From: a virus | Taxonomy: Duplodnaviria > Heunggongvirae > Uroviricota > Caudoviricetes | IMG/VR virus record: IMGVR_UViG_2740892258_000009 | Length of the DNA: 4,742 nt | Strand: one strand, 5' to 3' | Part shown: piece after piece, positions 1,070-1,276 of the stretch | Layout: each line of letters opens with the position of its first letter | Position numbering within the stretch: position 1 is the stretch's first letter | The notes under the pieces: generated by a model | The model's input: only the letters and a program-made list of their open reading frames with translations | Databases searched by the model: none | Told to the model about the DNA's origin: nothing | Translations under genes and position numbers: made by a program

Positions 1070-1098
1070 CAACAACAAAAAGTAGATATTTGTTGTTG
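1070..1098. repeat. 10-bp perfect inverted repeat CAACAACAAA / TTTGTTGTTG with a 9-nt spacer
   Basis: Arms are 1070-1079 and 1089-1098. The spacer AAGTAGATA contains an operator half-site whose centre lies 23 bp from the OL palindrome centre. The CAACAACAA core also occurs at 329-336 and 362-369. Confidence 0.5.
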
Positions 1099-1117
1099 TC
1101 TATGATTTTTCTATAAT
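1090..1117 (+). promoter_or_regulatory. Candidate sigma70 promoter firing rightward, antisense to the ParA-like gene 3' end
   Basis: Consensus -10 TATAAT at 1112-1117, with TTGTTG at 1090-1095 and a 16-bp spacer. The DNA is AT-rich, so chance matches are common. Confidence 0.3.
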
Positions 1118-1244
1118 TAATTGAAAGTTAAATGTTTTTGCTGATTTACTATGCTGTAAACTGAAAATATCGCACGAAGTTGGAGTAGGTATTGAGCATA
1201 GTGAATTATGAGGAGGGAGTTTTTTATGAGATTAATCAGGGAGA

Positions 1245-1276
1245 AAGAAGAGTAAAGCCCGGTTATGCGGCCGGGC
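1245..1276 (-). terminator. Probable intrinsic terminator of the repressor / ParA-like operon
   Basis: GC stem GCCCGG (1257-1262) / CCGGGC (1271-1276) with an 8-nt loop, 7 nt after the TAA stop (1286-1284). On the minus strand it is followed by UUUACUCUUCUUUCUC. The U tract is interrupted. Confidence 0.5.

Follow-up and report, generated by a model that had tools for sequence, protein, structure and literature searches.

The window analysed here, a 4,742-nucleotide stretch of a Caudoviricetes virus record (IMG/VR IMGVR_UViG_2740892258_000009), is the immunity region of a lambdoid Escherichia coli prophage like CPS-53, SfII and ST64B. An original prediction drew attention to positions 1090-1276, where a TATAAT hexamer is followed by a short open reading frame (ORF) with a strong Shine-Dalgarno (SD) sequence, both directed toward the 3' end of a ParA-like gene. 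It proposed an antisense regulator of that gene, perhaps under repressor control, or else a gene for a small peptide or small RNA (sRNA). We favour another reading, with confidence a little better than even: this interval is the upstream region of the early leftward promoter, pL, together with an empty accessory-gene slot, in which the promoter is possibly residual and the mini-ORF probably fortuitous.

The features that frame the interval are as follows (OL and OR denote the left and right operators).

2531-3235, minus strand: cI-type repressor gene, with HTH_3 and Peptidase_S24 domains.
1284-2360, minus strand: gene for a ParA-like P-loop ATPase, cargo downstream of cI (Pfam AAA_31, 2e-29, and CbiA, 5e-14; phrog_164; 'ParA family protein' in RefSeq).
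1276..1257, minus strand: intrinsic terminator of the cI-ParA operon, found by a terminator scan (6 GC pairs, tail TTTACTCTTC).
1071-1087: OL2, with one good half-site only, the well-matching AAAGTAG at 1079-1085.
1048-1064: OL1, a perfect palindrome (TGCTACTTAAAGTAGCA) that matches OR1 at 3295-3311.
1072..1044, minus strand: pL, assigned by homology (-35 TTGATT, 1072..1067; 17-bp spacer filled by OL1; -10 CAACAT, 1049..1044; predicted start about 1037).
3287-3315, plus strand: the rightward promoter pR, likewise assigned by homology (TTGCAT, 3287-3292; 17 bp; CATCAT, 3310-3315).
970-1029, minus strand: 60-bp leader just downstream of the putative pL start.

The order on the minus strand is cI, the ParA-like cargo, the terminator at 1276..1257, OL2, OL1, and pL. 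The repressor and cargo genes form a single operon that ends at the hairpin. Predicted pL is overlapped by the operators and leads from cI into the early-left region (yfdP to yfdT, and int), whose genes also lie on the minus strand. Positions 900-1300 are 100% identical to a prophage beside tRNA-Arg in E. coli IHE3034 and to about 100 further complete genomes; in IHE3034, RefSeq annotates no feature from the end of a plus-strand gene at 899 to the ParA gene.

Loci of relatives (given L numbers here) were retrieved both through the ParA-like protein and through cI. They support the assignment of the operators and of pL. Read as its reverse complement, 1044-1089 shows 78% identity to the OR/pR segment at 3270-3315, so that the left operator is an inverted copy of the right one, and the operator centres are 23 bp apart in both pairs (OL1-OL2 and OR1-OR2). 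OL1 is kept in the cI-homologue loci; ATCAACWACWAAAAGTAGA of OL2 is kept across loci whose cI is 72-100% identical; and TTGATT with a NANNAT -10 is retained in every locus of this operator type. Positions 1079-1085, originally described as a half-operator that hinted at control of a plus-strand promoter, are the good half of OL2. They belong to the control of pL and need no second promoter. A candidate third operator at 1139-1155 (TGCTGATTTACTATGCT) was rejected, as it is wrongly spaced and agrees with the operators at only 10 of 17 positions.

The 970-1029 element is 93-97% identical in phages of other immunity (including ST64B, SfII, SfIV, mEp460, ZF40, and YeP1), and is also present downstream of ParA homologues in L015-L024. 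Lying directly after the putative pL start, it looks like a conserved pL leader. Its predicted fold is insignificant (z = -0.16).

The hairpin at 1257-1276 lies where the original prediction placed it, and does lack a U tract on the plus strand. Its role is another one, as the minus-strand terminator of the cI operon. The CCCGG...CCGGG hairpin is kept in L015-L035, BTP1, and L092-L111; in sister phages it also ends a convergent small gene, and there too it has no good plus-strand U tract.

Between the hairpin and OL2 lies an AT-rich spacer of about 170 bp, for which Rfam gives no matches within 1090-1300. We read it as probably the upstream architectural region of pL, with A/T tracts and a site resembling those of integration host factor (IHF), and likewise as a likely empty copy of the accessory slot. 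The IHF-like site is this:

1126..1114, minus strand: IHF-like core TTTCAATTAATTA, with an A tract (1139..1135) 5' of the core, some 77-102 bp upstream of where pL is predicted to start.

The core has one mismatch to WATCARNNNNTTR, and relatives keep a yTGAWT core, accompanied by a T/A tract, at this position. Across 105 E. coli genomes, and across every viral and metagenome locus with the stretch, positions 1030-1300 are invariant apart from a sole substitution at 1046. The only structural variant, seen in a few E. coli genomes, is an IS1 element inserted into the AT-rich spacer at about 1141-1149 (L002, L003, L011, and L119). It duplicates 1141-1149 and splits the OL side from the side with the SD sequence and mini-ORF; the immunity genes are intact.

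The idea of a slot comes from sister phages. In these, a gene for a protein of 58-70 amino acids sits between OL and the cI-operon terminator, with its own promoter, and converges on the cI operon. Identity among ParA homologues drops from 100% and 95% straight to about 74% (in viral, genome, and metagenome collections). Nine of the ParA-homologue loci (L015, L016, L020, L025, L027, L028, L031, L032, and L035) carry a convergent ORF of 58-69 codons on the equivalent of the window's plus strand, ending 37-40 nt from the ParA stop. In cI-homologue loci with the same OL, other cargo replaces ParA, and homology to the window breaks at 1086, 1094, 1115, or 1139; a small plus-strand gene follows to the right of OL2 in many of them, beside unrelated cargo. 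The small proteins fall into three groups: Pfam DUF2767/phrog_5948 ('FumD' in NCBIfam); phrog_3975; and phrog_3946. Three examples come from cultured phages.

BTP1 (L121), 3531-3701: STMMW_03522, of the DUF2767 type, in the order N, pL/OL, STMMW_03522, bstA, cI.
HK225 (L167), 2501-2707: gp41.
phi80 (L168), 2501-2689: ORF that lacks annotation, lying between gene 40A and the OL operators (pL/OL is annotated).

The slot in the window has the same position as those in L015-L035, L092-L111, BTP1, HK225, and phi80. In BTP1 lysogens, STMMW_03522 reaches 17-53 transcripts per million (TPM) in 17 of 17 conditions (PMC7067206 Table S5), in a study that counts a gene as expressed at TPM > 10. The interval from cI to N is a recognised site of frequent accessory-gene insertion, a hotspot (PMC7067206 and PMC8585504, both citing Degnan et al. 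2007).

Does the window retain one of these genes in decayed form? Such a remnant, of DUF2767/phrog_5948, phrog_3975, or phrog_3946 type, would occupy 1120-1256, and would have kept a weakened promoter, an SD sequence and start, and the last codons, with most of the coding sequence deleted. The slot position and the terminator are indeed those of the intact genes. GGAG (1182-1185) and ATT (1191-1193) align with their SD sequence and ATG; GAAGAGTAA by the hairpin is similar to GAAGAGTAG, the ending of DUF2767 genes; an SD sequence, a start codon, and a short ORF persist in other empty slots as well; and there is a weak collinear likeness to the promoter region of the L102 type (75% by blast over 1044-1139; z = 3.1). 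All four formal tests nevertheless failed. Nucleotide profiles (nhmmer) of two of the gene families, each with 115 nt of upstream sequence, found nothing in 1088-1256 save the terminator (E = 2.4). Hidden Markov models of the three protein families gave no match better than E = 3 to the six-frame translation of 1100-1320. Local alignments of the slot with 16 relatives gave scores no better than those of shuffled sequence, and when deletions were tolerated in alignment to 16 reference genes, 115 of 300 shuffles equalled or beat the real sequence. The window slot also contains no ORF of 58-70 codons.

Likenesses picked out by eye were set aside: VNYEE (1201-1215) recalls the DUF2767 start MDYEE, and RLIREKEE* recalls the C-terminal RLVRDGKF* and LLEE* of two families. 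These lie in three different reading frames which, together with the four failed tests, leaves the remnant unsupported, and we think a decayed gene quite unlikely. Judged by the profile tests, the window phage falls outside the OL-adjacent small-gene families. The slot is better read as empty.

Two stretches of the slot resemble plus-strand promoters.

1090-1117, plus strand: the site of the original prediction, TTGTTG (1090-1095, 3/6), a 16-bp spacer, and TATAAT (1112-1117, 6/6).
1121-1155, plus strand: TTGAAA-18-TTTACT or TTAAAT-16-TATGCT.

For the first, the hexamers and their spacing stand exactly as predicted. TATAAT as such is not above chance (one in the window, 3.0 expected in shuffles), and a consensus promoter scan that demanded at least 4/6 per hexamer passed the site over on account of its -35. 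By position weights, with approximate hexamer frequencies and the score therefore rough, the site scores 8.3, ranking fifth of 47,070 positions and top among intergenic ones; equal scores also occur inside coding sequence, in the ParA gene and elsewhere. TTGTTG forms part of the right arm of a further element.

1070-1098: perfect 10-bp inverted repeat, CAACAACAAA-N9-TTTGTTGTTG, around the right half of OL2.

The repeat is seen only in the window lineage and, partly, in the L077 type.

The second stretch is the one that corresponds to the promoters of the sister phages. The pattern in gene-bearing loci is (G/A)AATTTATTTTT, N13-17, TGnTATGGT or TATGCT, AAAAAACA, a purine-rich SD sequence, and ATG. 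Multiple alignment sets 1121-1160 opposite this promoter and leader pattern, with 1121-1155 opposite the TGnTATGGT extended -10 and the -10 counterpart at about 1145-1155. To the right of OL2 there is weak similarity (z = 3.1 with the L102 type, at most 2 with other lineages), which a profile search misses. On this alignment the counterpart of the small-gene promoter falls at about 1121-1155 and not at 1090-1117, contrary to the original choice of site. A 12-nt inverted repeat (1144-1155 / 1195-1206, ATTTACTATGCT / AGCATAGTGAAT; 92% complementary, with 39 nt between the arms) takes in part of the candidate -10 TATGCT and would be the main stem of any plus-strand RNA begun upstream of 1144.

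A plus-strand promoter somewhere in the slot is plausible, because sister phages carry a transcription unit in the identical slot, transcribed in BTP1 lysogens. Either stretch may fire, producing a short convergent transcript that would meet the U-less face of the hairpin.

A more ambitious proposal is that repressor bound at OL2 modulates the TTGTTG/TATAAT site as repressor at OR2 does pRM (the promoter for repressor maintenance). Its RNA would read through the hairpin into the ParA 3' end and, by antisense pairing or polymerase collision, would lower or tune expression of the ParA-like protein, or block read-through from the cI operon into pL. The geometry invites the comparison. The best pRM-like promoter of the window, ATGACT (3271..3266)-17-TAACCT (3248..3243) on the minus strand, has its predicted start at or next to the cI ATG at 3235, which suggests a leaderless cI mRNA, as in lambda. 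The match in operator-to-start distance that the original prediction reported holds for these predicted starts: 38 bp separate the OL2 centre (1079) from the end of TATAAT, and 37 bp the OR2 centre (3280) from the end of TAACCT. The top intergenic score, the convergent slot units of BTP1, HK225, phi80, and many prophages, with their expression in BTP1 lysogens, and a hairpin that in relatives, too, has no good plus-strand U tract and so makes read-through plausible, all point the same way.

Relatives with the same operators, however, argue otherwise. In those that carry the gene, the convincing promoter is TGnTATGGT, about 66 bp beyond OL2 and too far for repressor contact. The counterpart of TATAAT is -10-like in some relatives (hexamers TATCAT, TATTAT, and TATACT; types L102, L107, and L111, and partly L077), but is not in four of nine lineages (hexamers TATATA, TGTTAA, ACTTAA, and AATTAA; types L070, L081, L092, and L096). 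The TTGTTG hexamer is an arm of a repeat limited to this lineage and L077, and the module adjoins unrelated cargo, with no specific tie to ParA. We regard a repressor-modulated antisense promoter as unlikely. A stricter version, in which repressor at OL2 (centre at about -45, as for OR2 and pRM) contacts RNA polymerase and activates a plus-strand RNA made only in lysogens, a brake on the cargo 3' end and on read-through into pL whose SD-led mini-ORF would keep it covered by ribosomes up to the hairpin, is in our estimate very improbable.

The surroundings of the slot speak directly to the proposed antisense regulator of ParA. The plus-strand unit travels with the OL side and adjoins unrelated cargo: besides ParA it is found beside BstA, phi80 40A-type, and HK97 gp48-like genes, among others. 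It is therefore not a ParA-specific regulator, and the tie to ParA in that proposal is unsupported. Two properties of a cis-antisense RNA are also missing here. The RNA would have no defined 3' end, with no plus-strand U tract and an open-ended overlap with ParA; and it does not co-occur with its target, since ParA homologues occur both with and without the plus-strand module.

The remaining plus-strand elements of the slot concern translation.

1211-1219 and 1226-1255, plus strand: SD-like AGGAGGGAG and a 9-codon ORF (15 codons from ATG 1208).
1192-1311, plus strand: 39-codon ORF with a TTG start and GGAG 6 nt upstream, crossing the terminator into the ParA 3' end.

The description of the first was accurate. 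AGGAGG (1211-1216) precedes ATG 1226 by 9 nt, the purine run extending through GGGAG to 1219; the ORF at 1226-1255 reads MRLIREKEE*, and the version from ATG 1208 (1208-1255) reads MRREFFMRLIREKEE*; and the stop is 1 nt from the hairpin. GGAG-N4-10-ATG occurs seven times in the window (3.0 expected), two of the seven overlapping at the 1226 site and most of the others standing at ORF starts. Taken singly, none of the predicted motifs exceeds chance. The longer ORF at 1192-1311 matches no small-protein family profile and is probably not a gene. A minus-strand ORF of 55 codons (1117..1284) was rejected, as it crosses the terminator.

If the 9- or 15-codon ORF is translated, it would yield a micropeptide, or act as a leader whose terminating ribosome melts the plus-strand hairpin and so sets how far the RNA reaches antisense to the ParA-like gene. 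The AGGAGG/GGGAG run 6-9 nt before the ATG and the position of the stop fit this, the more so as sister-phage small genes stop 0-13 nt from the hairpin, and as SD-led short ORFs appear in six of nine empty-slot lineages, four of them starting MR. Those ORFs, though, run to 7-26 codons, encode unrelated peptides, and stop anywhere from within the hairpin to 20 nt upstream. The suggested small-peptide gene accordingly loses its footing: its product has no conserved counterpart, and other empty slots hold unrelated ORFs. A leader-peptide attenuator would have nothing to regulate, as no plus-strand gene lies downstream and the next gene is the convergent ParA. Translation would further depend on an unproven promoter, and the predicted plus-strand RNA (1124-1300), which folds modestly better than shuffles (z = -2.2), pairs the SD sequence weakly with a U run. 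A functional mini-ORF is to our minds highly improbable; SD sequence and ORF are most likely fortuitous or vestigial.

Several observations weigh against reading 1090-1276 as pL upstream region and empty slot. First, the 1090-1117 site outscores the inferred pR, pRM, and pL and is unsurpassed by any intergenic site, so that 'residual' may undersell it; and its placement relative to OL2 differs by no more than 1 bp from that of pRM relative to OR2, a layout compatible with deliberate control by the repressor. Second, a perfect AGGAGG 9 nt ahead of an ATG is uncommon, and with SD-led mini-ORFs in six of nine empty-slot lineages, translation initiation there could be selected. Third, the IHF-like site is less than compelling: matches of its kind number 16 in the window against 11.6 expected, which is not significant alone, and the core is 33 bp from OL2 rather than the 25-26 or 35-37 bp of relatives, slightly out of phase. 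Finally, with 1030-1300 devoid of variation, purifying selection on the ORF or on the hexamers can be neither demonstrated nor excluded.

As it stands the window is an ordinary addition to the lambdoid immunity regions, having their usual set of operators, early promoter, and terminator and a cargo slot that can be swapped. Its practical value is for annotation: the promoter and the mini-ORF call for transcript data before they are annotated as a gene. Were the plus-strand promoter proved repressor-dependent, it would be a new output of a classic genetic switch. Of more general interest is the small OL-adjacent gene itself, expressed in lysogens, independent of the neighbouring defence cargo, and present in many temperate phages. 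The NCBIfam name 'FumD', for the DUF2767 type, is the sole hint of activity for these families, and empty slots like that of the window could act as natural controls.

Other genes of the window lie to either side.

384-899, plus strand: phrog_1244 gene, with its own terminator at 938-957.
3342-3605, plus strand: Cro/YdaS-like gene.
From 3634, plus strand: ymfL-like gene.
From 4384, plus strand: replication gene.

The phrog_1244 gene is flanked by a 26-nt inverted repeat (347-372 / 901-926, 85% complementary) and preceded by two copies of TCCCCAACAACAA in the region 324-372; the CAACAACAA motif occurs twice more, at OL2 (1070-1078) and in inverted form at 1089-1098. In place of 314-966, other loci carry different DNA, which makes this look like a swappable cassette with boundary repeats. 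To its left, the minus strand at 49-272 resembles STnc100 below the Rfam threshold (40.3 bits, gathering cutoff 47; E = 2e-6; full model covered). Its strand is that of pL and its place is upstream of the early-left genes, so that the pL operon could have here a structured leader or an sRNA.

On the right, a perfect 56-bp tandem duplication spans 3963-4074 (2.0 copies, 100% match). The ymfL-like ORF from 3634 stops at 4032, inside the second copy; the RefSeq ymfL of IHE3034 is 558 nt long. A 15-bp tandem repeat, TCTGACCCGTCAAAA, is present in 3.3 copies at 4693-4742, in the replication-initiator-like gene that is cut by the window end; these repeats could be iteron-like origin repeats.

Among known systems, lambda OOP (against cII) and P22 sar (against ant) are short transcripts that face the 3' end or start of a gene of the regulatory region, as a transcript from the slot would. 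OOP and sar each end at an efficient terminator of their own and act on a defined target; unlike them, the window lacks both a plus-strand U tract and a conserved pairing partner. An OOP counterpart exists in BTP1 (PMC7067206). The plus-strand units of BTP1, HK225, and phi80 are closer relatives, sited between OL and the cI-operon terminator, convergent, and sharing the CCCGG...CCGGG hairpin with the window. They possess, however, a real ORF of 56-69 codons, a TGn extended -10, and a AAAAAACA leader, whereas the window has no detectable ORF homologue or clear promoter copy.

Lambda pRM with OR2 offers a parallel for the OL2 side: the OL2 centre is likewise about 44-45 bp upstream of the predicted start and abuts a weak -35. 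Unlike in lambda, OL2 has one good half-site, relatives that share the operators do not conserve the arrangement, and the starts are predicted ones. Lambda pL has IHF, along with a distant UP element, to which the IHF-like site and A/T tracts of the window are comparable, the role of IHF here being presumed from the likeness.

The nearest overall model is the lambda immunity region itself (cI-rexA-rexB, tIMM, OL/pL). As in the window, a repressor and defence-type cargo are followed by a terminator and by operators over a leftward promoter, and OL is an inverted relative of OR. No promoter that runs from OL toward rexB is known in lambda. The differences are of detail: two recognisable operators per side instead of three, and a ParA-like ATPase as cargo. 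In its operators, promoter homology, terminator, and gene order, the window belongs to the lambdoid arrangement of cI, cargo, terminator, and OL/pL.

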